64,000 nt of DNA. Origin: Octopus vulgaris (Eukaryota). The stretch lies in NCBI GenBank assembly GCA_951406725.2, contig OX597821.1:76942001-77006000 (forward strand), in the 5' to 3' direction. The notes under the pieces were generated by a model. The model saw nothing but the letters and a program-made list of their open reading frames with translations, ran no database searches and was not told where the DNA came from. The position numbers and the translations under genes were made by a program. Position 1 is the stretch's first letter, and the number at the start of each line of letters is the position of its first letter. This document shows, in pieces, positions 400-58,940 of this stretch.

Positions 400-705
400 A
401 GTCGTAAGACACCCGCTGTTTTTGTCCTGTTATTACTATTATTGTTTTTTGTATTTATATTCGTGTGGCATCGTCCGTTTTTCTGTTTGTTTCGTATACA
501 TTCGATCCTTTTTCCAAGAAATCTATTGCTCGTAGCTTAGTTTTTCCTTGTGGCTGGCCGGATCGGAGCGATCTCAAGATTAATCAGCCGAAATTGCGAG
601 GATGATCCGGTTCTTGACTGAAGATTGAAGGCTTCGAATGTCCCGTCCGTGATTTTTATATCGTCTTCTAAATGTTTTACGTTCTTGTCCCAGTTTGTAC
701 TTTTC

Positions 706-22030: not shown

Positions 22031-22034
<4 letters not shown>

Positions 22035-22637
22035 CCTCCTAACAGTGAACACGCTTTCTTCCTGCGCTCTTAAAAATCTTTCCTCGTCTAGGCCCAAAAA
22101 AGCCCTCATTGTTTGTTTTCTTGTTTGTTTTTATTTCTTGTACTGTATTTTTTTGTAATTGTATTTTTATTTTGTATTTTATTTTGTAATTTTATTTGTA
22201 TCGTTTTTACGTCCTGTTTTTGTCACATTTTTTCTTTCCTTGTTTTTACCCCTCTGCAAAGGAATTTTATTTAATTCTTTCGCAGGAAGGGCTAGTTCGA
22301 CGAGTCGTGTTCTGTCCTCACCTTCGAAACACGCATGGAGTCGTACTAGGGACAGCTGATGAAGGGGATTTTTCCTTGTGTTGTTTGTCTTGTACTCTGT
22401 TTTTTCTTTTTAAAAAAAGGGTCCTTTTCCATGTTTGTTTTTACGTTTTCGTTTCTCGTTGAGTTCTACGTCTATTTGTGGTGTCCTGTACTCACGTATA
22501 TATATTTATATATGCATGTATATATACATGTAGATGTAGGTACGTACATATATGTATGTATGTATACATATATTTTATTTATTACACTATTGTATGACTG
22601 AGCGCCCTCGCGTCGTTTCGTTTCCTCCAAGTAAGTT
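22031..22637 (+). mobile_element. Non-autonomous element family F2 between two (TA)n tracts
   Basis: T-rich non-coding unit bounded by (TA)n on both sides, carrying the permuted hammerhead. Single copy in this window. Confidence 0.6.
22286..22377 (+). ncRNA. Permuted, pseudoknotted hammerhead-like ribozyme with kink-turn (F2)
   Basis: GAAGG/CCTTC precedes GAAA(22326). CGTGU/ACACG forms stem III, with GUU site at 22309-22311. CTGTCC/GGACAG forms stem I. CTGATGA lies at 22356-22362. K-turn GA(22302)/ATG-GA(22335-22339) is closed by CTAGTTCGAC/GTCGTACTAG. Confidence 0.75.
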
Positions 22638-22794
22638 TATATATATATATATATATATATATTAATAAAAAGAATTCCAACCTTGTCTGATTTTCACGTT
22701 TTATTTACAATCTTATAATGATATATTATAAGATAATATATTATAATTGAATAAAATAAAATGAAATAGTAGAATGTTAAATATTCATTCTGAT

Positions 22795-22839
22795 TGAACT
22801 AGTACTTTCATGCATTGAATTCTGCAATCTTCGGGTTCA
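22795..22839 (-). ncRNA. Type I hammerhead in the Penelope pLTR
   Basis: Minus strand: TGAAC-CCGAAGA-t-TGCA gaattcaa TGCA-t-GAAA-GTAC-TA-GTTCA. Confidence 0.78.
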
Positions 22840-23333
22840 TGTAGTAGTGTTGACAGTCATGCTTCACAATTTTTGACTGTAGCAAGATGAGTGATTCTGT
22901 GCTATAAATACAGCTGGGTAGGCTCCAGAGTGCTAGGTTTTGCAAACTGTATTCTGACCAATCAGTGTGTAGTATCACTCAATTACTTAAGCTGATTGGT
23001 TGGTTGAGCTGATTGGTTTAGGCATCACGCTTTGTTGGACAGGTCAAGAGTCCTGTATCTTGACCCTGGCCGAAGCAGCAATTGTTGGGTTATTTTTAGA
23101 AATGTTGTAAATATCCTTTGTCAGAGATTTTTATATTTTTATATTTCAATTGTCATCATCATCATTGTCAGCACCTTAATTATTGTTGCTAGTGGTGATG
23201 GTGGTGGCAATAGAACTTTTAACCCTAAATAAGATAATTTTCCTGCTATCTTCGTCTTGATCACCTTTAGTATTGTTGTTGTTGTTAGTGGTCATGGTCG
23301 TAGCAGTGGAAGTAATACCTCTAAGTATTATTA

Positions 23334-24776
23334 TTATTGTTTATTTAGCTTGGGTTCGAATTTATCAATAAAATTCTTTTCTCTGATTTTCCTCTCGATT
23401 TCACTTGGGCTGTGTAATTTGTAGAATGGAAATATTATATATATTTTCCGACCACATGTTGCTAGGTGGTTACTCAAAGGTATCTGACGGACCTCTGGGT
23501 CTCTAATCTGTTGCCGGTGTACACGTGAGCGTTCTAATAGTGCGTTTCCCGTCTGACCTACATATATTTCTTCACAATTTGGGCATTTGATGCAGTAAAT
23601 TAAATTTCTGCTTTTGCAGTTCATATTCGCGTTTGTGAATATTTTCCCGGTTTTTGTGTTTATATATTGACCGGTATGTATGAATTGGCATGTGCCACAT
23701 CGGCTATCATTGCATTTAGATACCGTGAATGTTTGGTCTTTGTTGCTGAGGTCAAATTTTGCCTTTGTTAGTAATGTTTTCAAGTTTTTAGGCTGTCTTT
23801 TACTAAGCACCATAGCTCGATCCTTGATTATGTCTTTTAATTCATTACTTTGGGCAATGATTGGTAGGTTTGCTTTGGCAATGTTGAAGATATTCTGGTG
23901 ACATGGGTTGTGTGTCACTATGAATGGTATGACTTGTTCTTGTTTTCCTCTTCCTTGGGTTGTCCTAAGTTGTTGTATAGGTATTTTTATAGCCCGCTGT
24001 ATGCCATTTTCTATAAGTAGAGATGGGTATTTTTGTTTGAGCAAAAATTCTCTTAGTTCTATTAGGCGTTTGTTCCTGATATTTGCATCTTCTACAATAG
24101 TACAAATTCTTCTGGCTAGGCAGTATGGGATGTTACGTTTTGTATGTGGTGGATGGCACGACTTAAAATTTAGGTATTGATGTGTGTCTGTGTGTTTATA
24201 GTATATATCTGTGGTGATGGTGGTGTCTTTTTTAATTACCATTATATCCAGGAATGGTAATTTGGTACTACTCATCTCCTTTGTAAATTTGAGAGATGGG
24301 TGTAGGTTGTTCAGGAGGATATTGAACTCTTCCAGAGTATTTAGAGATTCTGTCCAGATTATGAAACAGTCGTCTAGGTATCTCTTCCATGCCTTTTCAA
24401 TATACTTTCTAAATCCAGTGCCATAGTTTACCTCCACCTCTTGGTAGAGTTGTTCTTCTAAGTATCCCATTACAGAGTTGGCGTAAACGGGAGCAAACCT
24501 CGTTCCCATCGCCGTGCCTCTAATTTGGATGTAATTCTTTCCATTGAAGAAGAATGTGTTATTTTCTAGAATAAGTTTGACTGTGTCTAATATAAATGGC
24601 ACTGTGAATCTGCTGGGAATCACTTCTCTATGTTTTTCTAACCAGTATTTAATCGCCTTTATTCCTAAATCGTGTGGAATATTGGTGTAGAGGCTTACCA
24701 CATCAAAACTTAGCAAAACTGAATTTGTTTCTGTTGTTTTGGGAAGATGGGACAGGAAGTCGATGTCATCCCTGAT

Positions 24777-31861: not shown

Positions 31862-32248
31862 AAGCCGTAAGGCTTGATTTCCACACACACGCTTAATTTA
31901 ATTCGTTCTTACTCGAAAGACACCTCTTGTTATGTCCTGTTATCATTTTTATTGTATTTGTGTAACATTGTCCATTTTTTCCCGTCCTTGTTTTTGTATA
32001 CATTCGCTGCTTTCTTCCAAGGGTCTAATGCTCTTAGCTTAGTATTTCCTTGGGGCTGGCCACATCGGAGCAATCACGAGTATAATAGAGCCGAAATTGC
32101 GAAGATAATCTGGTACTCGACCGAGGAAAGAAAACTTCGAACGATCCGTCCTTGGTTTCTTTGTATCGTCTATATGTATGCTTTCTTGTCTCATTTTTGT
32201 ATCAACCAGCTGTCCGGATGTTTTGCGTTCTTGTCCCATTTTGTATTT
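31862..32248 (+). mobile_element. Family F1 element, copy 2
   Basis: Homologous to 400-712; (TA)n on both sides. Confidence 0.75.
32054..32137 (+). ncRNA. Permuted hammerhead-like ribozyme with kink-turn (F1 copy 2)
   Basis: GGCT/AGCC-GAAA; GCAAU/AUUGC; AUC site; CGAGTA/TACTCG; CCGAGGA; K-turn GA/GAA-GA. Confidence 0.65.
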
Positions 32249-32631
32249 ATATATATGTGTATATGTGTGTGTGTGTGTATGTGTGTGTGTTTGTGTGTTG
32301 TGTGTGTATGTGTGTGTGTGTGTCTATATTTGTGACCACCGCTTGACAATCGGTGTTGGTATGTTTATGTCCCTGTAACTTAACGATTCGGCTAAAAAGA
32401 GATCGATGGAATCTCTTAGGAAAAAAACCTACTGGGGTCGATACATTCGACAATAAATCTTTCAGCGCGGTGCCTCAGCATGACCGCAGTCTAATGACTG
32501 AAACGAGTAAGAAATAAAAAATTACACACATATATATATATATAGATATATGTATGTATGTATGTATGTATAACTATATATATATATATATATATATAGT
32601 AGAAATATGTTTTGAAAAAAATATAAAATAC

Positions 32632-32789: not shown

Positions 32790-33154
32790 GGAAGCTCTTT
32801 TAGCACCAAGCTGCAACCGAAAATGTTGATTATGTCACATTTCTGCGGAACATATCACACACGTGATAAACAGCTGCGCACAAATGTCAAGGTATTACCT
32901 CCCAATGCGACATGATGCTGTCGCTAAATCAATATACAATGCCATCCGAGAAAAAAAAAGATAATCGCTTTCCTGGGAAAAGATAAAGAAATCTTCCCGT
33001 TGTCGAATACTTGAGTATATAACAGCAAATGGAATATGGTTGGAACATTCCCATTAAAACTTCTGCCAAAAGCAAACATAACGGGACGGATCTCGTTGCT
33101 TTGGAAAAAGTGCGTAACGTCACAGAAGTCAGCTGACCTGATGATGCACATGTA
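32790..33154 (+). mobile_element. R4-like (restriction-like endonuclease) non-LTR retrotransposon fragment, decayed
   Basis: KC*LCHISAEHITHVINSC (CCHC knuckle)..YYLPMRHDAVAK..WNIPIKTSAKSKHNGTDLV..EVS*P. Confidence 0.8.
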
Positions 33155-33390
33155 ACTATTTCTTTATTACCCACAAGGGGCTAAACATAGAGGGGACAAA
33201 CATGGACAGACATAGGTATTAAGTCGATTATATCGACCCCAGTGCTTAACTGGTACTTAATTTCTCGACCCCGAAAGGATGAAAGGCAAAGTCGACCTCG
33301 GTGGAATTTGAACTCACAACGTAACGGCAGCCGAAATACCGCTAAGCATTTCGCCCGACGTGCTAACGATTCTGCCAGCTCGCCGCCTTA
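33155..33390 (-). mobile_element. SINE family A, full length, with 14-bp TSD
   Basis: TSD ATGATGCACATGTA at 33141-33154 and 33391-33404. Confidence 0.93.
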
Positions 33391-35704: not shown

Positions 35705-36276
35705 TGAAGACGCGTCGCTTGGCGGTTATAATATTCGGCTCACGACTGTATGGTCTCGCGTTCGGTTCATGGCAGCACGTCGTGTCCTTGAGCAAGACAC
35801 TTTATTTCACATTGCTCCAGTCCATTCAGCCGGCAAAAATGAGTTGTACCAGTAATTCTTATTTCTTTATCGCCCACAAGGGGCTAAACATAGAGGGGAC
35901 AAACAAGGACAGACATAGGTATTAAGTCGATTACATCAACCCCAGTGCGTAACTGGTATTTAATTTATCGATCCCGAAAGGATGAAAGGCAAAGTCGACC
36001 TCGGCGGAATTTGAACTTAGAACGTAACGGCAGACGAAATACGGCTACACATTTCGCCCGGCGTGCTAACGTGTCTGCCAACTCACCGCCTTTTATACCT
36101 GTAATTCAAAGGTTCAGACTTATCGCATTCTGTGTCACACTGAATCTCCCCGGGAACTACGTTAAGGGTACACGTGTCTGTGGAGTGCTCAGCCACTTGC
36201 GCGTTATTTTCAGGCGCAGACTGTTCCATTAATCGGGGCAACTGGAACCCTCGTCGTCGATAGCGACGGAGTGCCA
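35705..36276 (+). mobile_element. SINE family C with a nested antisense family A copy (35860-36091)
   Basis: The family C sequence resumes after 36092; near-duplicated TACC.GTAATTC at both junctions. Confidence 0.85.
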
Positions 36277-37120: not shown

Positions 37121-39552
37121 TAATAAGATTTAGAGACTGAAATACCTTCACAGATGCATCTGTCTCTCTCAAGCCTACGGGCCTCTTTATCCCAACAACC
37201 TTACAATACTACCTCACCCCCCAGCAGGTGTCAGTGTCGGCCACTTTGAGAAGTAATTACATAGAGTCTGTCAGGAGAATTGGTAGCGGTTCATCTGCGA
37301 CTGTTTGATTCTTGCCATGAATAAGAGGTTAGTTCTGGTTCTTAAAATCTTGTATTACGAAACATATTCTGCATACGGTTTCGGCAGGCCTATGAATGCC
37401 TTGGGCACAAGTCCTTCCGTCAGGCCAAACCAATAAAGAAAGACATCGGTCTACACACACATACACACACACAAGCAGCACTGGGTTACATTTGGTAAGG
37501 CATTAAGCTATATATTAGCTTAGAGGTTCTTAGATAAAAAGAAATATGCCAAAAGTCTCGCAAAAATTAGAAACAAATGTCTATGTCTTGAAGAACCCGT
37601 GAAACCTTAAGTTTGAGCTTGCTCAACTTATGTTTAAATCCAGTATGGAGTATAAGAACACGCATCCGAATACCTACACACCAAAGTGGTTAATTTCAAA
37701 ACGTCCATATGTATGTACACACACACACACGCACGCATATCCGTAAACACCCACACAATGGTAAGTCAAACAACACACGCATGGCTAGACATATATAACA
37801 ATGGAATCATATTATGGCACAAGGACAGCGATGAATGGAGTTAAGCCGGTTACTAGTTCTTCTTTTATCGATCCCTGAAGGAGGAAAAGCAAGGACGAAC
37901 TCGGTGGTGTTTGAACTCAGCGCATAGAGAGCCAGGAGAAATACCGCTAAGCTTCTAGTCCGACTTGCTAATGATTCAGACAGTCCACCGCCATGGGGGA
38001 AGGGGGTGAGTCGATTACATCGACTCCCAGTGCCTAACTGGTACTTATCTTATTGACCCCGAACGGATGAAAGACATAGTTGGCCTCGGTGGAATTTGAA
38101 CTCAGAGCGTATGGACAGACGAAATGCCGCTAAGCCTTTTGTCCAGCGTGCTAACGTTTCTGCCAGCTCGCCGCTTTACAGGCATTCATAACAATGAAAA
38201 CTCAAATTGGTTACACTCTCTGCAAGAAATAGCTCACAGAAAATGCTTGAAAGAACAGACAACAAATAAAGGACACATTGCAAAGTTGTGTTGGTTACAA
38301 CTGGAATGACTTTGATAATAAGACTGATTCATTCGTGTTTGTCTGAGTTAACCGACAATGGTTTAAACCCTATACCATCGCTTGACCTGCTACAATTAGC
38401 AAATGATACCCGACCGTCAAATCATATACCGACTACTTAAAACAGCAGTTTCCTAGACTAATGTAGGGTGGATTGGCGGTGGTGGCACGTGGCTTAGTGG
38501 TCAGGTTATTCGGCTCATGATGGTTAGGTCGTGAGTTCGATTCTTGGCGGCGTGTTGTGCTTTTTGAGTAAGATACTTTATTTCACGTTGCTCGGCTCTA
38601 CTCGGCTGATAAACATGAGTTGTAGCTGTTATTCAAAGGGCCAGCCTTGTCGCACTCTATGTCGCGCTGGATTTCCCTGATAACTACATTAAGGGTCTGC
38701 GTGTCTGTGGAGAGGTCAGCCTCTTGCACGTTAATTTCACGAGCAGGCCGTTTGGTTGATCCGATCAACTGGAACCCTCGTAGTCGCAACCGACGGAGTA
38801 CCCGTTAGTGGTGGAGGATGAAAAATTTGAAAAAACGAAGGATAATCGTTATGCTTAATGAAGACCAACTTTAAGTTTTTAAACTTGTCCAACCCATAAC
38901 GATGGCGAAGAACTATGTTCATGCAAATTCTGTTTTGATTTTCTCCTCATCAATAGAAAGATGACATTGCAAGCGAAGTGGACGATGGAATTTCTCAGTT
39001 GAAGAACCACTGATGTAGTCTTCGTAATGGGTGTTTTTAAATTTCGTCTTTTAAAACAAGAATTAATGGCATAGCCATTTATGGATTGCATTTGGTGACT
39101 AGTCTCTTCGATCAAGACTGACACCACAGCAATAAAAACATCAATAACCTATATGCCCATACACCAAATTATAATTATTTTATTTAAATATAATATTTAA
39201 ACCAATTGTTTGGAAAACAACCACACTCTTTATACTAACAAAACTAAATCATTTTTGATAATTTTAATCCCATATATTATTCCTAAAAATTGAAAATTTT
39301 TCGTGCAGTCTAGACCACAAAAAGATACACTATATGTATACGTATATATATATCTATATCCATATTATATGTATACTTATATATATGTACACTATATGTA
39401 TACGTATATATATATCTATATCTATACTATATGTATACTTATATATATTTATGTAACGGGAAGGTTTACGAAAATAAACAAAAGACGAAGGCAGGTGGAG
39501 TACAAACAAACAAATGTATTAGTATGGCGCTCAGGAATAGAAATAGAACAAG

Positions 39553-39590
39553 TCTTTTACGTTTCGAGCCTACGCTGTTCGACAGAAAGA
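39553..39590 (-). ncRNA. Degenerate H1 hammerhead (CUGUCGA); duplicate at 43478-43515
   Basis: TCTTT-CTGTCGA-acAGC gtag GCTc-GAAA-CG-TA-AAAGA. Confidence 0.6.
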
Positions 39591-39752
39591 TACACAGAAA
39601 AGAAACACGGAGAGAAACAAGGAGAGAAAAAATGCGTGTAGGAGCTCTATATCTATATCTATGCTATATGTATACGTACATATATATATATCTACACTAT
39701 ATGTATACTACATATATCTACACTATATCTATATGTATATATATATATATAC

Positions 39753-39806
<54 letters not shown>

Positions 39807-39973
39807 GTATAGATAACTGAAGAGATGGTGGTGTGGATTTCCACCTCGGCATTCGAAACTCAGAATTTTAACATGGCTACCGAATAATTGTCACATATTA
39901 CATTTACAGATAAATTCCTCTATTTACATAATATTGAGGTCTCTTTCTTTCTTTTGTTATCTTACCGTTTTTA

Positions 39974-40026
<53 letters not shown>

Positions 40027-40086
40027 TTTTTTTCAGAATGAGATAAAAAACCAAGGCTGTGAAGATTTTAGAACATTTATAAATAG

Positions 40087-40133
40087 GTCTTACAGTTGTT
40101 TCCAGGATATTCATTATATCCCTTTATCGGACG
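40087..40133 (-). ncRNA. Degenerate H2 hammerhead (CCGAUAA); duplicate at 44015-44061
   Basis: CCGATAA-ag-GGATAT aatga ATATCC-tg-GAAA-CAACTG-TA-AGAC, inside element 40022-40380. Confidence 0.55.
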
Positions 40134-40704
40134 GTGTGAGAAGATGGCTAAGCAATAGTTAATTTAGATAAGATACGAAATAGAGAGTGAAGTGGAGGAA
40201 TGAAAATAGATGTGAGATATGCAGGGATATTGCATTTGTAGATCCATTATTTAGACAGAATGGTATACATATAAGATTCCAATACCTTGTGAGTAAAATC
40301 CAATAGTATTTATAATTGGTCATTCCAAGTATAGGGTTTGTAAACTGTGTTATTGAATCAAGGGTTTTATTTAAAGATATATATACACACCACCACCGAC
40401 AGCAACAATAACAACATCAATAATGACGACAACAAGAGCAACAACGATAATAATGGACATGCGTATTGTCACGTTCACACAAAACATAGCAAAAACACTG
40501 CATCTTGTAGTTTTACACAAACACGCACAACCATATATGAACATACAATGAAATACGCAAAAGCGCGCGCACTCACATACGCATGCATATGCGCATTCAC
40601 ACAAAACACACGCAGTAAGAGACACAAACACACTGTGCTATGTATAATGATCATACATTCACATGATGCCAATATACTTTTACACACACACACGCAAGCA
40701 CGCA

Positions 40705-40783
<79 letters not shown>

Positions 40784-41231
40784 ATATAAGCAAAATTTTC
40801 GCGCTTCATACACGAAGAACAAATTCACCATAAACGTATTCAAGTAGCCATTATTTATACACATACACACACACACACACACATAAATATAAGCAAACGC
40901 ACACACATACATACGCACGTTGATGGACACATATACACTTGTATACAAACACACACGTACGTAAATACACACACACACACACACACATCCGTAGGCACAC
41001 ATACACACACACGTGCCTGGAGAGAGTGTTTATATACATTTCAATCAAGCAGGCAGCCATCCAAGAGGAATCGTTTGTTGCAATTGAATAATGACAACAA
41101 TGTGACAATGTTTTCCATTTCCTTGTCAAGAGAATTCGCACACCACACACACACACACACACACATGCACACACACATACACACTGAGGTACAGATAAAC
41201 ACACAAGCACACACACGCCTTTATATAATGT

Positions 41232-41280
<49 letters not shown>

Positions 41281-41426
41281 ATGTATGCCAGTATATACAT
41301 AAACACATTACTAATACGCACAAATAAATATACATTTATGCACACACTTCACACAAACATACATATATACGTATGCGTGTATATATTAGTCTATATATAT
41401 ATGCATGTGCGTGAGTATCATGCATT

Positions 41427-41460
<34 letters not shown>

Positions 41461-41633
41461 GACAGACTTAACAAACGCATGCGTATGTGTATGCATATCT
41501 GCTTGTACATAATATATATGTGCGTGTGCAAGCGTGTGTATACATATATATATATATATTATATATATTTATACGAATATCTATCTATATACATGCGTAT
41601 TTATACATTTATACATACATACCCGTATGTATA

Positions 41634-41733: not shown

Positions 41734-43679
41734 CACAAGGACAGCGATGAATGGAGTTAAGCCGGTTACTAGTTCTTCTTTTATCGATCCCTGAAGGAGG
41801 AAAAGCAAGGACGAACTCGGTGGTGTTTGAACTCAGCGCATAGAGAGCCAGGAGAAATACCGCTAAGCTTCTAGTCCGACTTGCTAATGATTCAGACAGT
41901 CCACCGCCATGGGGGAAGGGGGTGAGTCGATTACATCGACTCCCAGTGCCTAACTGGTACTTATCTTATTGACCCCGAACGGATGAAAGACATAGTTGGC
42001 CTCGGTGGAATTTGAACTCAGAGCGTATGGACAGACGAAATGCCGCTAAGCCTTTTGTCCAGCGTGCTAACGTTTCTGCCAGCTCGCCGCTTTACAGGCA
42101 TTCATAACAATGAAAACTCAAATTGGTTACACTCTCTGCAAGAAATAGCTCACAGAAAATGCTTGAAAGAACAGACAACAAATAAAGGACACATTGCAAA
42201 GTTGTGTTGGTTACAACTGGAATGACTTTGATAATAAGACTGATTCATTCGTGTTTGTCTGAGTTAACCGACAATGGTTTAAACCCTATACCATCGCTTG
42301 ACCTGCTACAATTAGCAAATGATACCCGACCGTCAAATCATATACCGACTACTTAAAACAGCAGTTTCCTAGACTAATGTAGGGTGGATTGGCGGTGGTG
42401 GCACGTGGCTTAGTGATCAGGTTATTCGGCTCATGATGGTTAGGTCGTGAGTTCGATTCTTGGCGGCGTGTTGTGCTTTTTGAGTAAGATACTTTATTTC
42501 ACGTTGCTCGGCTCTACTCGGCTGATAAACATGAGTTGTAGCTGTTATTCAAAGGGCCAGCCTTGTCGCACTCTATGTCGCGCTGGATTTCCCTGATAAC
42601 TACATTAAGGGTCTGCGTGTCTGTGGAGAGGTCAGCCTCTTGCACGTTAATTTCACGAGCAGGCCGTTTGGTTGATCCGATCAACTGGAACCCTCGTAGT
42701 CGCAACCGACGGAGTACCCGTTAGTGGTGGAGGATGAAAAATTTGAAAAAACGAAGGATAATCGTTATGCTTAATGAAGACCAACTTTAAGTTTTTAAAC
42801 TTGTCCAACCCATAACGATGGCGAAGAACTATGTTCATGCAAATTCTGTTTTGATTTTCTCCTCATCAATAGAAAGATGACATTGCAAGCGAAGTGGACG
42901 ATGGAATTTCTCAGTTGAAGAACCACTGATGTAGTCTTCGTAATGGGTGTTTTTTAAATTTCGTCTTTTAAAACAAGAATTAATGGCATAGCCATTTATG
43001 GATTGCATTTGGTGACTAGTCTCTTCGATCAAGACTGACACCACAGCAATAAAAACATCAATAACCTATATGCCCATACACCAAATTATAATTATTTTAT
43101 TTAAATATAATATTTAAACCAATTGTTTGGAAAACAACCACACTCTTTATACTAACAAAACTAAATCATTTTTGATAATTTTAATCCCATATATTATTCC
43201 TAAAAATTGAAAATTTTTCGTGCAATCTAGACCACAAAAAGATACACTATATGTATACGTATATATATATATCTATATCCATATTATATGTATACTTATA
43301 TATATATATATGTACACTATATGTATACGTATATATATATCTATATCTATACTATATGTATACTTATATATATTTATGTAACGGGAAGGTTTACGAAAAT
43401 AAACAAAAGACGAAGGCAGGTGGAGTACAAACAAACAAATGTATTAGTATGGCGCTCAGGAATAGAAATAGAACAAGTCTTTTACGTTTCGAGCCTACGC
43501 TGTTCGACAGAAAGATACACAGAAAAGAAACACGGAGAGAAACAAGGAGAGAAAAAAATGCGTGTAGGAGCTCTATATCTATATCTATGCTATATGTATA
43601 CGTACATATATATATATCTACACTATATGTATACTTACATATATCTACACTATATCTATATGTATATATATATATATAC

Positions 43680-43735
<56 letters not shown>

Positions 43736-43902
43736 GTATAGATAACTGAAGAGATGGTGGTGTGGATTTCCACCTCGGCATTCGAAACTCAGAATTTTAA
43801 CATGGCTACCGAATAATTGTCACATATTACATTTACAGATAAATTCCTCTATTTACATAATATTGAGGTCTCTTTCTTTCTTTTGTTATCTTACCGTTTT
43901 TA

Positions 43903-43955
<53 letters not shown>

Positions 43956-44634
43956 TTTTTTCAGAATGAGATAAAAAACCAAGGCTGTGAAGATTTTAGA
44001 ACATTTATAAATAGGTCTTACAGTTGTTTCCAGGATATTCATTATATCCCTTTATCGGACAGTGTGAGAAGATGGCTAAGCAATAGTTAATTTAGATAAG
44101 ATACGAAATAGAGAGTGAAGTGGAGGAATGAAAATAGATGTGAGATATGCAGGGATATTGCATTTGTAGATCCATTATTTAGACAGAATGGTATACATAT
44201 AAGATTCCAATACCTTGTGAGTAAAATCCAATAGTATTTATAATTGGTCATTCCAAGTATAGGGTTTGTAAACTGTGTTATTGAATCAAGGGTTTTATTT
44301 AAAGATATATATACACACCACCACCGACAGCAACAATAACAACATCAATAATGACGACAACAAGAGCAACAACGATAATAATGGACATGCGTATTGTCAC
44401 GTTCACACAAAACATAGCAAAAACACTGCATCTTGTAGTTTTACACAAACACGCACAACCATATATGAACATACAATGAAATACGCAAAAGCGCGCGCAC
44501 TCACATACGCATGCATATGCGCATTCACACAAAACACACGCAGTAAGAGACACAAACACACTGTGCTATGTATAATGATCATACATTCACATGATGCCAA
44601 TATACTTTTACACACACACACACGCAAGCACGCA

Positions 44635-44713
<79 letters not shown>

Positions 44714-45173
44714 ATATAAGCAAAATTTTCGCGCTTCATACACGAAGAACAAATTCACCATAAACGTATTCAAGTAGCCATTATTTATACACATACACAC
44801 ACACACACACACATAAATATAAGCAAACGCACACACATACATACGCACGTTGATGGACACATATACACTTGTATACAAACACACACGTACGTAAATACAC
44901 ACACACACACACACACATCCGTAGGCACACATACACACACACGTGCCTGGAGAGAGTGTTTATATACATTTCAATCAAGCAGGCAGCCATCCAAGAGGAA
45001 TCGTTTGTTGCAATTGAATAATGACAACAATGTGACAATGTTTTCCATTTCCTTGTCAAGAGAATTCGCACACCACACACACACACACATGCACACACAC
45101 ACACACACACACACATGCACACACACACACACTGAGGTACAGATAAACACACACACACGCCTTTATATAATGT

Positions 45174-45212
<39 letters not shown>

Positions 45213-45320
45213 ATGTATGCCAGTATGTACATAAACACATTACTAATACGCACAAATAAATATACATTTATGCACACACTTCACACAAACATACATATAT
45301 ACGTATGCGTGTATATATTA

Positions 45321-45369
<49 letters not shown>

Positions 45370-45443
45370 GACTAACAAACGCATGCGTATGTGTATGCAT
45401 ATCTGCTTGTACATAATATATATGTGCGTGTGCAAGCGTGTGT

Positions 45444-45480
<37 letters not shown>

Positions 45481-45540
45481 CGAATATCTATCTATATATA
45501 TGCGTATTTATACATTTATACATACATACCCGTATGTATA
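41734..45540 (+). repeat. ~3.8-kb direct duplication, copy 2
   Basis: Starts immediately after the gap at CACAAGGACAGCG; differs from copy 1 by a few SNPs and microsatellite lengths. Confidence 0.97.
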
Positions 45541-45624
45541 TATGTATGTATCTATATAGGTTTGTATGTATACATAAGTATTTACACATACACATACACA
45601 CACGCAGGCACGCACACACGCAAT

Positions 45625-52625: not shown

Positions 52626-53170
52626 CGGCGAGCTGGCAGAATCGTTAGCACGCCGGGCGAAACGCGTAGCCGCATTTCGTCTGCCACTACGTTCTGAGTT
52701 CAAATTCCTCCGAGGTCGACTTTGCCTTTCATCCTTTCGGGGTCGATAAATTAAGTACCAGTTACGCACTGGTGTCGATGTAATCGACTTAATCCGTTTG
52801 TCTGTCCTTGTTTGTCCACTATGTGTTTTAGCCCCTTGTGGTTAGTAAAGAAATAGGTATTTCGTCTGTCTTTACTTTCTGAATTCAAATTCCGCTGAAG
52901 TCGACTTTGCCTTTCATCCTTTCGAGGTCGATAAATTAAGTACCTGTTGCATACTGGCGTCGTTCTAATCGACTGCCCCCCCCCCAAAAAAAATTTCGGG
53001 CCTTGTGTTTAGAGTAGAAAAGAATTGTTAGCACGCCGGATAAAATGCTTAGCGGCATTTCTTGCGGCTATTTATGTTCTGACTTCAAAATCCGCTGATA
53101 TCAACTTTGCCTTTCATCGATAAAATAAAGTACCAGTCAAGTACTAGAGGCCTCCACCCTTCAGAAATGC
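52626..53170 (+). mobile_element. SINE family A multimer
   Basis: A dimeric copy plus a third partial copy. Confidence 0.9.
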
Positions 53171-55305: not shown

Positions 55306-55363
55306 CTTTATATACACATATGTTTTTTCTGGTATTTTTCTTTTAATTGTATTTTACTGCGGG

Positions 55364-55812
55364 GTGGCGAGCTGGCAGAAACGTTAGCACGTCGGGCGAA
55401 ATGCTTAGCAGTATTTCGTCTGCCGCTACGTTCTGAGTTCAAATTCCGCCGGGGTCGACTTTGCCTTTCATCCTTTCGGGGTCGATTAAATAAATAGCAG
55501 TTACGCACTGGGGTCGATATAATCGACTTAATCCGTTTGTTTGACCTTGTTTGTCCTCTCGCTGTTTAGCCACTTGTGGGTAGTAAAGAAATAGGTATTT
55601 CGTCTGCCGTTACGTTCTGAGTTCAAATTCCGCCGAGGTCGACTTTGCCTTTCATCCTTTCGGGGTCGATTAAATAAGTACCAGTTACGCACTGGGGTAG
55701 ATATAATCGACTTAATCCGTTTGTCTGACCTTGTTTGTCCTCTCTCTGTTTAGCCCCTTGTGGGTAGTAAAGAAATAGGTATTTCGTCTGCCGTTACGTT
55801 CTGAGTTCAAAT
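55364..55812 (+). mobile_element. SINE family A with a tandem 184-bp unit
   Basis: GTATTTCGTCTGCCG recurs at 55411, 55595 and 55779. Confidence 0.9.
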
Positions 55813-57809: not shown

Positions 57810-58940
57810 TCACCTTTTAATTCGCCATTTCTATGGGATTGGCTTTTGGTGAAGGAGGGAGTTCGATACCGCAACCCTCTTCTGAGATACCTGCCTTGAT
57901 ATTGGTTCATCTGGGATCTTGTGAAGCAAGAGGTCAAGCTGTTTCTTGTAAATATCTATACCCACTCCATGGAGATCCCTCAGAAGATTTGGCAAGGAGT
58001 TAAATGGCTGTGGCCCTTGAATGCTAAGCTATTGCAGTACATGGTTCTCACCTTAGATGGGACAGCTGGGACTTTTGGAACAGTGCAGTGATGTCCAGTT
58101 CGTGGTCTGGTATAACTTTCAATTCCAAAGTTTGGTGTCAGCTCCTGCTGCATCTTCCATACATACATCACTGCATACCTCTCCTGTCTTCGCTCCAGAT
58201 GGTAGAGTCGAACCTCTTTCAGTCTCTTCCGCTAGCTCAGCTATTTCATTGATGCAGTCTTCCTCGTTAAGTATCGCTGAACTGCCTGCTATTAATGCGA
58301 GCTGGCAGAAACGTTAGCACGCCAGGCGAAATGCGTAGCCGTATTTCGTCTGCCGCTACGTTCTGAGTTCAAATTCCGCCGAGTTCGACTTTGCCTTTCA
58401 TCCTTTCGGAGTAGATAAATTAAGTACCAGTTACGCACTGGGGTCGGTGTAATCGACTTAATCTCTTTGTCTGTCCTTGTGTGTCCCCTCTATGTTTAGC
58501 CCCTTGTGGGCAATAAAGAAATAAGAAACGTTAGCACGCTGGGCGAAATGCTTAGCGGCATTTCATCTGTCCTTACGTTCTGAGTTAAAATTCCGCCGAG
58601 GTCGATTTTGTCTTTCATTCTTTCGGGGCCGATAAATTAAGTACCAGTGGTGTACTGGGGTCGATCTAATCGACTGGCTCCTTCCTAAAAAATTTCGGGT
58701 CTTGTGCCTAGAGTAAAAAAGAGGAACCACAGTTGAGAGCAGTAAGGGGACCACAGTTGAGAGCAGTAGTCAAGATGGCTGGGGGCAAATATCTTCCATA
58801 GGACCAGCATAGTTTCCTGGTCTCTTGTTCTGAAGGTTCTCAGGATCCATCTGGCCATTTACCTGCACACTGATAACATCTTGGTGACATGCGTGTGAAA
58901 CGAGGCATCGTTGCTCATATCAATCCCAAGATCACGCACC
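57810..58940 (-). mobile_element. CR1-group LINE 3' fragment, interrupted by SINE A
   Basis: VRDLGIDMSNDASFHTHV..WILRTFRTRD..LDYCSQLWSP; KRLKEVRLYHLERRQERYA..FNSLPNLLRDL..KKQLDLLLHKIPDEP. Confidence 0.88.
58297..58722 (+). mobile_element. SINE family A, dimeric
   Basis: Consensus match; nested in the CR1 fragment. Confidence 0.9.

Follow-up and report, generated by a model that had tools for sequence, protein, structure and literature searches.

The 3' tail of a short mobile repeat of Octopus vulgaris, and equally the tail of the Naiad elements, very probably constitutes a predicted self-cleaving hammerhead of non-circular arrangement, which is opened between A9 and stem II and of which a decayed copy is found in the stretch of DNA analysed here (the window; 64,000 nucleotides, positions 76,942,001 to 77,006,000 of contig OX597821.1 in assembly GCA_951406725.2). 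The letters of the hammerhead core, their order and stems I to III with paired changes are present, and no strand of stem II follows A9. Self-cutting of this RNA is likely, judged from the sequence.

Two copies of the repeat, in the following called F1, are located at 402-696 (copy 1) and 31864-about 32245 (copy 2) of the window; with a mutual identity of 73%, both represent 3' ends of a dispersed mobile repeat with thousands of genomic copies. In a genome-wide similarity search of the 2.8-Gb assembly with its 227 contigs, over which all genome-wide counts were taken, copy 1 from subfamily A found 2,445 candidates, the best 40 of which scored 96-97% identity, and one query with copy 2 gave 3,693 candidate matches, the best 40 of which scored 88-91% identity. 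From the majority of its subfamily B, copy 2 differs at 24 of 317 positions (7.6%), compared with a divergence of 2.2-6.4% in its 29 nearest copies. The elements of copy 2 are as follows, together with those of copy 1.

31864..32245, forward strand: copy 2, a 5'-truncated subfamily B copy with (TA)n at its end
32003-32006 with 32138-32141, forward strand: further short helix, predicted
32011..32016, forward strand: 5' strand of the closing helix P0, predicted to pair with 32128-32133 (a fold equalled by 7 of 200 shuffles)
32017..32053, forward strand: predicted hairpin directly before G10.1, with the base CCAAGG/CCTTGG
32054..32058, forward strand: stem II, 5' strand, with G10.1 at 32054 and the partner at 32088-32092; the fifth pair is broken in copy 2
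32060..32069, forward strand: 5' strand of the k-turn helix with GGA; in copy 2 the pairs at 32063 and 32066 are broken
32070..32075, forward strand: strand of stem III together with AUC, the predicted cleavage triplet; the cut is predicted after C32075 by analogy with the hammerhead consensus
32076..32082, forward strand: stem I, 5' strand; the first pair is broken (A32076)
32088..32100, forward strand: stem II 3' strand, GAAA (32093-32096) and partner strand of stem III
32101..32113, forward strand: k-turn bulge, GA and 3' strand of the k-turn helix
32114..32127, forward strand: 3' strand of stem I with the core CCGAGGA; its U4C is private, the subfamily majority being CTGAGGA
32128..32141, forward strand: closing helix P0, 3' strand, which begins right after A9 and is unable to form stem II
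498..641, forward strand: copy 1 (subfamily A), with the core 552-624 intact and the predicted cut after 573
498-511 with 627-641, forward strand: closing helix of copy 1, predicted

The F1 unit has a length of approximately 0.8 kb (769-859 bp between tandem copies) and starts with a head of 25-40 bp, which recurs as a tail after (TA)n. Copies are mostly 5'-truncated and partial tandems are formed. F1 repeats carry the marks of a non-autonomous Penelope-like element, that is partial tandems, 5' truncation, a short tail and a microsatellite target, as these marks are given in the accessible part of PMC8557442. The topology of the F1 hammerhead is not type I, which sets the repeat apart from the non-LTR retrozymes with their tandem monomers, type I hammerhead and circular RNA. 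Besides F1, other short interspersed repeats with several copies are present in the window (33153-33387, 35854-36090, 52626-52828, 55363-55812, 58297-58675 and 32330-32510), one of them a tandem with a period of 184 bp. Equally, a local duplication with a period of about 3.9 kb, visible as repeated microsatellite patterns, involves 39300-41600 and 43200-45600.

A preliminary description of copy 2 had recognized a pseudoknotted, hammerhead-like fold, which holds, but was incomplete, as the closing helix at A9 and the hairpin at G10.1 lie beyond the part it covered. The change of stem I on both strands relative to copy 1 is real, with two double changes (A576-T615 in copy 1 to G32078-C32118 in copy 2, and A579-T612 to T32081-A32114), but the hexamers originally given were one base out of register, the true register being TCAAGAT/TTCTTGA for copy 1 and, for copy 2, ACGAGTA/TACTCGA. 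In the same stem, one pair has been gained in copy 2 (mismatch T580.T611 to A32082-T32114) and one has been lost (A32076.A32120), adjoining the cleavage site. The change in stem III from G.U to A-U, initially considered to be compensatory, is one-sided only, and a double change in the k-turn helix (G560-C608 to A32062-T32111) had been overlooked. Pair-by-pair comparison confirms that the AUC site, the GAAA and the GA/GA of the k-turn have been retained in copy 2, and that A32076 and C32063 are mismatches; two more mismatches, G32058.G32088 in stem II and C32066.A32107, had not been noticed. With a total of four broken core pairs (32058, 32063, 32066 and 32076), a 1-nt insertion in the linker and U4C, copy 2 is decayed and probably impaired in self-cleavage.

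The core letters CCGAGGA are indeed present in copy 2, but their proposed reading as a U4C variant shared with the Penelope hammerhead of the same window is not supported. Genome-wide, the pattern composed of GAAA, k-turn GA and core has 8,642 matches with CTGA (control 15) and 143 with the U4C spelling CCGA (control 15), and the damaging C3U change (TTGA) is, with 241 matches (control 61), more frequent than CCGA. Since CCGA is rarer than a damaging change and is, among 100 matches listed, scattered over all subfamilies, U4C in copy 2 is decay and not a functional variant. In contrast to its sporadic occurrence in the F1 motif, U4C is fixed in the Penelope type I hammerhead at 22795 (approximately 22795-22840, minus strand), where CCGAAGA is found in all 40 scored copies, all of them 100% identical. 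A natural U4C has a lower activity in vitro, yet is sufficient for a viroid in vivo, according to the available text of PMC3088659. The Penelope-like element at 22790-23750 of the minus strand (loci L241-L265 and L274) is very young and shows no difference between its 40 scored copies over 161 bp. It has a tandem unit of 4,271 bp with matches to a reverse transcriptase (RT) as well as to GIY-YIG at the C-terminal end, a second frame of 454 aa that overlaps the start of the RT frame and a type I hammerhead with a minimal stem III, and is a possible driver of the young repeats.

That the fold is kept by paired changes is supported, though by many copies and families and not, as first argued, by two copies. 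The covariation set consisted of copy 1 and 75 copies in genome order (69 distinct) out of 158 full-length cores, with the similarity-ranked ones left out. In the 69 distinct copies, 92.2% of the cells are paired versus 87.7% after shuffling, with 85 double-change cells versus 31.3; register-slid controls have 16-44% paired cells. Double changes occur at 9 of 23 pairs versus 5.5 in shuffles (9 of 500 shuffles reach 9) and all four helices are represented among them; as the copies are related, these double changes represent few events, with one event counted repeatedly. Independent variation of stem positions across copies, the observation that had been suggested to speak against the fold, was looked for, and the fold withstood it, double changes being in excess. 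Further pair types, on the other hand, show no excess over shuffles in the 69 distinct copies (178 of 500 reach it).

In the third pair of stem I, both changes are CpG transitions, so that independent decay would yield mixed pairs. Among 22 subfamily B copies, the full-length ones of 30 picked by the motif between the two stem I positions, there are 14 A-U, 7 G-C, 1 U.U and 0 mixed pairs; in all 60 copies of B/C type, the pair is matched 53 times, mixed 3 times and changed in another way 4 times. Within the k-turn helix, 26 of the 69 copies have one particular pair broken, mostly as an A.C fixed in a large subfamily. This fixed A.C mismatch, at pair 560-608 in copy 1 numbering and in a large subfamily of A, has the appearance of an intermediate between G-C and A-U.

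The core letters C3 U4 G5 A6 N7 G8 A9, G12 A13 A14 A15.1 and U16.1 H17 are found in 151-158 of 158 cores per position, counts which are partly fixed by the search patterns, with U16.1 and H17 not fixed. Stems I, II and III abut this core at C3/H17, G12 and A15.1/U16.1, respectively, and do so with covariation. In a kink-turn, a 3-nt bulge and tandem pairs, G.A and A.G, lie between two helices. Its sequence is present in F1, with the GA on the strand free of search patterns kept in 152 of 158 and 156 of 158 cores; a k-turn is present, too, in the third carrier described below and in the Naiad-type tail, and is absent from the Naiad tails of coral, acanthocephalan and ostracod. A program for nested folding, which is unable to fold crossed helices, did not recover the fold in copy 1 (z -0.08, with both longer constructs at z near 0) and gave z -1.98 for the core of copy 2. 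An Rfam scan of the window gave 292 weak matches; the 150 of them that were listed include no hammerhead and nothing at gathering score. A second, conventional hammerhead leading from CUGAGGA into a downstream GAA was considered and rejected, with no stem I or III to be found. Considering letters and pairing together, the hammerhead-like fold as such is well supported.

A descriptor that fixes the core letters and their order and no stem sequence found copy 1 and a third carrier without mismatch, and had 0 matches in 100 shuffled windows. Copy 2 was matched only once CYGA and two mismatches were permitted, at which level shuffles gave 4 matches in 100 windows. The third carrier is composed as follows.

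22249..22367, forward strand: third carrier with the core at 22286-22362; same fold with different stems in an unrelated young repeat family
22249-22253 with 22363-22367, forward strand: closing helix P0, predicted
22254-22285, forward strand: hairpin, predicted
22286-22290 with 22321-22325, forward strand: stem II
22311, forward strand: predicted cut after this position (GUU site), with CTGATGA at 22356-22362

The repeat of the third carrier spans 22032-22500 of the window on the forward strand and has a tandem period of 784-800 bp; its family comprises 2,766 candidates, the best 40 of which scored 95-100% identity, and the fold is kept in 28 listed cores. Further stem sets were found in the flanks of fetched loci (L260, L053, L090 and L112). 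The same order with other stems was equally seen at L215, L238 and L222, and no obvious k-turn of the F1 kind at L260 and L053.

In none of 10 families examined is A9 followed by a strand of stem II: in each of the 10, the pairing energy after A9 is -3.1 kcal/mol or weaker, compared with -6.2 to -10.1 reached by the 5' strand. The stretch after A9 pairs with a strand situated about 40-55 nt before the core, and the hairpin in between ends at G10.1. Closing helix and hairpin, which are not part of the descriptor, are equalled by at most 7 of 200 shuffles in 9 of 16 representatives, excluding an artefact at L053, where the closing helix is due to an inverted duplication and was discarded; the closing helix fails to reach significance in 6 of 16 representatives, both Naiad-type ones included. 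This final test used an upstream flank of 65 nt. An upstream window of 40 nt does not reach as far as the partner strand, and for this reason the flank test lacked significance with it in 8 of 10 families. The sequence of the closing helix varies from CCTTT/GAAGG in subfamily A and TTTCTT/AAGAAA in subfamily B to CCCCT/AGGGG in the third carrier. Over the 10 families, 148 of 150 cells are paired, a number that is partly circular, as the descriptor with which most representatives had been chosen itself requires pairing.

How is this arrangement related to known hammerheads? Eckert et al. (PMC10085705) have divided the hammerhead into the blocks S, G and C and, in the accessible part of the work, assume that block C is uninterruptible, with CUGAnGA and stem II directly joined. 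In the octopus sequence, the blocks follow in the order S, G, C, that is site, GAAA and CUGAnGA, and block C as it exists in SGC (stem I strand, CUGAnGA, stem II strand) is not intact and ends at A9. The direct join of A9 to 10.1, or a join via 1-2 nt, by which a hammerhead is recognized, is replaced by two predicted helices in between. As joining A9 to 10.1 yields the ring of SGC, CSG and GCS, the octopus form can be interpreted as this shared ring with its opening, where the two helices lie, placed inside the core.

According to the available sections of Eckert et al. 2023 (PMC10085705), the SGC forms (HRIMA-1 and variants) have the order, a short linker between stems I and II and a core of crossed helices in common with the octopus form. 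In SGC, the 5' strand of stem II directly follows CUGAnGA, whereas in the octopus it is found at the 5' end and two helices replace the link. The SGC forms described there stem from metatranscriptomes and none from the genome of a known organism, whereas the octopus form occurs in animal genomes with thousands of copies; equally, a k-turn is not mentioned for SGC in these sections, whereas the octopus families possess one. The k-turn helix starts 1 nt past the 5' strand of stem II and ends 0-1 nt before the 3' strand of stem I, and may take over the role of the SGC helix that joins the outer sides of stems I and II. The CSG type, represented by two metagenome sequences in the same sections, has the cyclic block order of the octopus form, but is opened between blocks, whereas the octopus form is opened inside block C.

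Penelope type I hammerheads (PMC4209133) and the hammerheads of animal non-LTR retrozymes (bioRxiv 10.64898/2026.07.22.740005) share with the octopus form, as far as the accessible text of both sources goes, the location of the hammerhead in the terminal repeat of a Penelope-like element and the short non-autonomous derivatives. They differ in being circular permutations (type I), often minimal and dimeric; the octopus, a pseudoknot and a Naiad ribozyme are all unmentioned in the accessible text of the bioRxiv contribution. A pseudoknot-containing hammerhead (PMC11300833) shares the pseudoknot and has, per its abstract, pistol-like connectivity. A literature search, with subscription papers outside its reach, found no description of the octopus fold or its rewiring.

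In the accessible part of Craig et al. 2021 (PMC8557442), no canonical hammerhead is reported for Naiads and no fold is given, with Naiad_Ovul flagged as HHR_half_core. The published Naiad_Ovul tail shows the same order and fold, including the k-turn; its motif has 187 exact matches genome-wide (control 0), and pieces of the genome are near-identical to the published Naiad_Ovul tail and protein. At one locus (L268), a Naiad RT remnant is located upstream of the motif on the same strand; an RT match is absent in 7 of 8 long Naiad-type loci. Read by eye, the same order with closing helix and hairpin included is present in the Naiad tails of Acropora (3), Pomphorhynchus, Darwinula and Octopus (2), and weakly, with a short stem I, in the Naiad tail of Beroe; published Naiad tails of four phyla and, weakly, of a fifth show this order. 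The nematode tails Naiad-3_Nbra and Naiad_Hcon, also read by eye and with names taken from the file order, are of the CSG type with block C intact; two further Naiad tails gave an ambiguous reading by eye. The supplement of PMC8557442 was read at 60 of 62 CTGATGA and 30 of 43 CTGAAGA places, which does not amount to a count over 54 families.

Naiads resemble F1 in the (TA)n target, 5' truncation, partial tandems and a short tail, as described in the available part of PMC8557442. The Naiad clade comprises elements with an open reading frame for an N-terminal GIY-YIG plus RT and the descendants of such elements; the F1 unit itself is without such a frame, and at about 0.8 kb F1 repeats are too short for an RT. 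There is no blastn similarity between F1 repeats and the Naiad tail, so that a dependence of F1 on Naiad proteins can only be inferred. Cephalopod Naiads are described as long inactive in the accessible text of PMC8557442; subfamily A, in contrast, is young.

The 5' ends of the copies pile up at the predicted cut. For subfamily A, 100 copies were chosen by the 3' end; of the 75 at risk, 26 begin within 16 nt after the cut versus 4 of 49 in the 16 nt before (p 6e-4); four of the 26 start at the first base after the cut, at least three are deletion or inversion joints, and the other 16 bins contain 0-12% of the ends each. A second sample was taken in genome order and comprised 94 core-bearing copies, 4 of which, being Naiad-like, were removed (two copies are common to both samples); here, 33 of 90 begin 0-15 nt after the cut versus 4 of 57 in the next 16 nt (p 3e-5). 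Subfamily B has 7 of 30 ends after the predicted cut versus 1 of 23 before, and Naiad-type copies show no pile-up (2 of 30 after versus 3 of 28 before). For subfamilies A and B, this pile-up indirectly points to cutting in vivo. The AT-rich linker with TAAT just past the cut may add to it by microhomology to (TA)n; other AT-rich stretches of the element have 3-12% of the ends per bin versus 35% after the cut. If the RT stalled at the structure, ends would be expected at the 3' foot of the latter, a place at which no more than 3 of 86 copies have theirs.

As a mechanism, the closing helix at A9 and the hairpin at G10.1 are predicted to stack, to replace the missing A9-10.1 link and to hold stem II against the core, with stem III continuing through the kink-turn in the octopus families. 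Transcripts of source elements would then cut themselves after the NUH triplet, and tandem transcripts would in this way also be reduced to pieces one unit long. At (TA)n sites, a Penelope-type RT/GIY-YIG protein would still use the 3' piece as its template, and this would explain why many copies begin at or just past the cut. We consider it rather probable that Naiads and their short parasites carry an active hammerhead with a wiring that is not in print, an SGC/CSG ring opened in the core with a two-helix module in place of the A9-10.1 bond and, in the octopus, a protein-binding k-turn switch; the cut would take place in the germ line and be recorded as the 5' end in about one third of those copies which extend to it, and nematode Naiads would have kept the CSG opening.

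The motif might alternatively be a selected RNA structure of hammerhead ancestry that no longer cuts and serves as a recognition signal for the RT or for a k-turn-binding protein. The missing A9-10.1 link and the location at the 3' end, where the RT loads, would be compatible with such a signal, as would be the Poseidon ribozyme, for which the accessible part of PMC11167929 reports mutants that still insert in vitro and no RNA-seq reads ending at the site. We regard a loss of cutting as improbable, however, as families with entirely different stems retain the catalytic letters as well as the U16.1-A15.1 pair, and copy ends accumulate up to the predicted cut and drop past it. Cutting might also take place only in a dimer or tandem transcript, where the second copy lends its strands to a conventional three-way junction. 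The repeats do occur in partial tandems and Penelope hammerheads are often dimeric, as the available text of PMC4209133 states; this would be very surprising nevertheless, since a strand of stem II after A9 is found in no copy, so that a dimer does not restore the A9-10.1 link, and since stem III is long and stable, unlike in the dimeric Penelope forms. Least credible of all is correction at the DNA level between inverted arms together with shared descent, with ends arising from microhomology and no functional RNA: the arms are 25-45 nt apart, independent events within F1 are few, some changes are CpG transitions and TAAT lies just past the cut, but six helices cross around an unchanged catalytic core in unrelated families and in several phyla, and other AT-rich stretches do not collect ends as the cut does.

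The hammerhead opened at A9 would, if true, add to this ribozyme class an arrangement outside the six block orders considered possible, show that animal genomes contain non-circular permutations and supply the ribozyme that Naiads had seemed to lack. New with respect to this interpretation are the correction of U4C, the two link-replacing helices, the third carrier, the nematode CSG Naiads and the end pile-up, the last of which lets genomes alone address cutting by Penelope-type ribozymes in vivo and the use of cut RNA for insertion.

With respect to expression, contigs of four runs guessed to be RNA have a higher depth 3' of the site, in a setting in which contigs cannot show ends and a DNA control is missing, so that nothing is concluded from this depth. 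Contigs in four runs equally have loose ends before window position 571, where the 3' part of the motif is joined to other 5' sequence. This other sequence still holds a GGCTGGCC-like strand, which suggests that these contigs represent expressed relatives with a longer arm.
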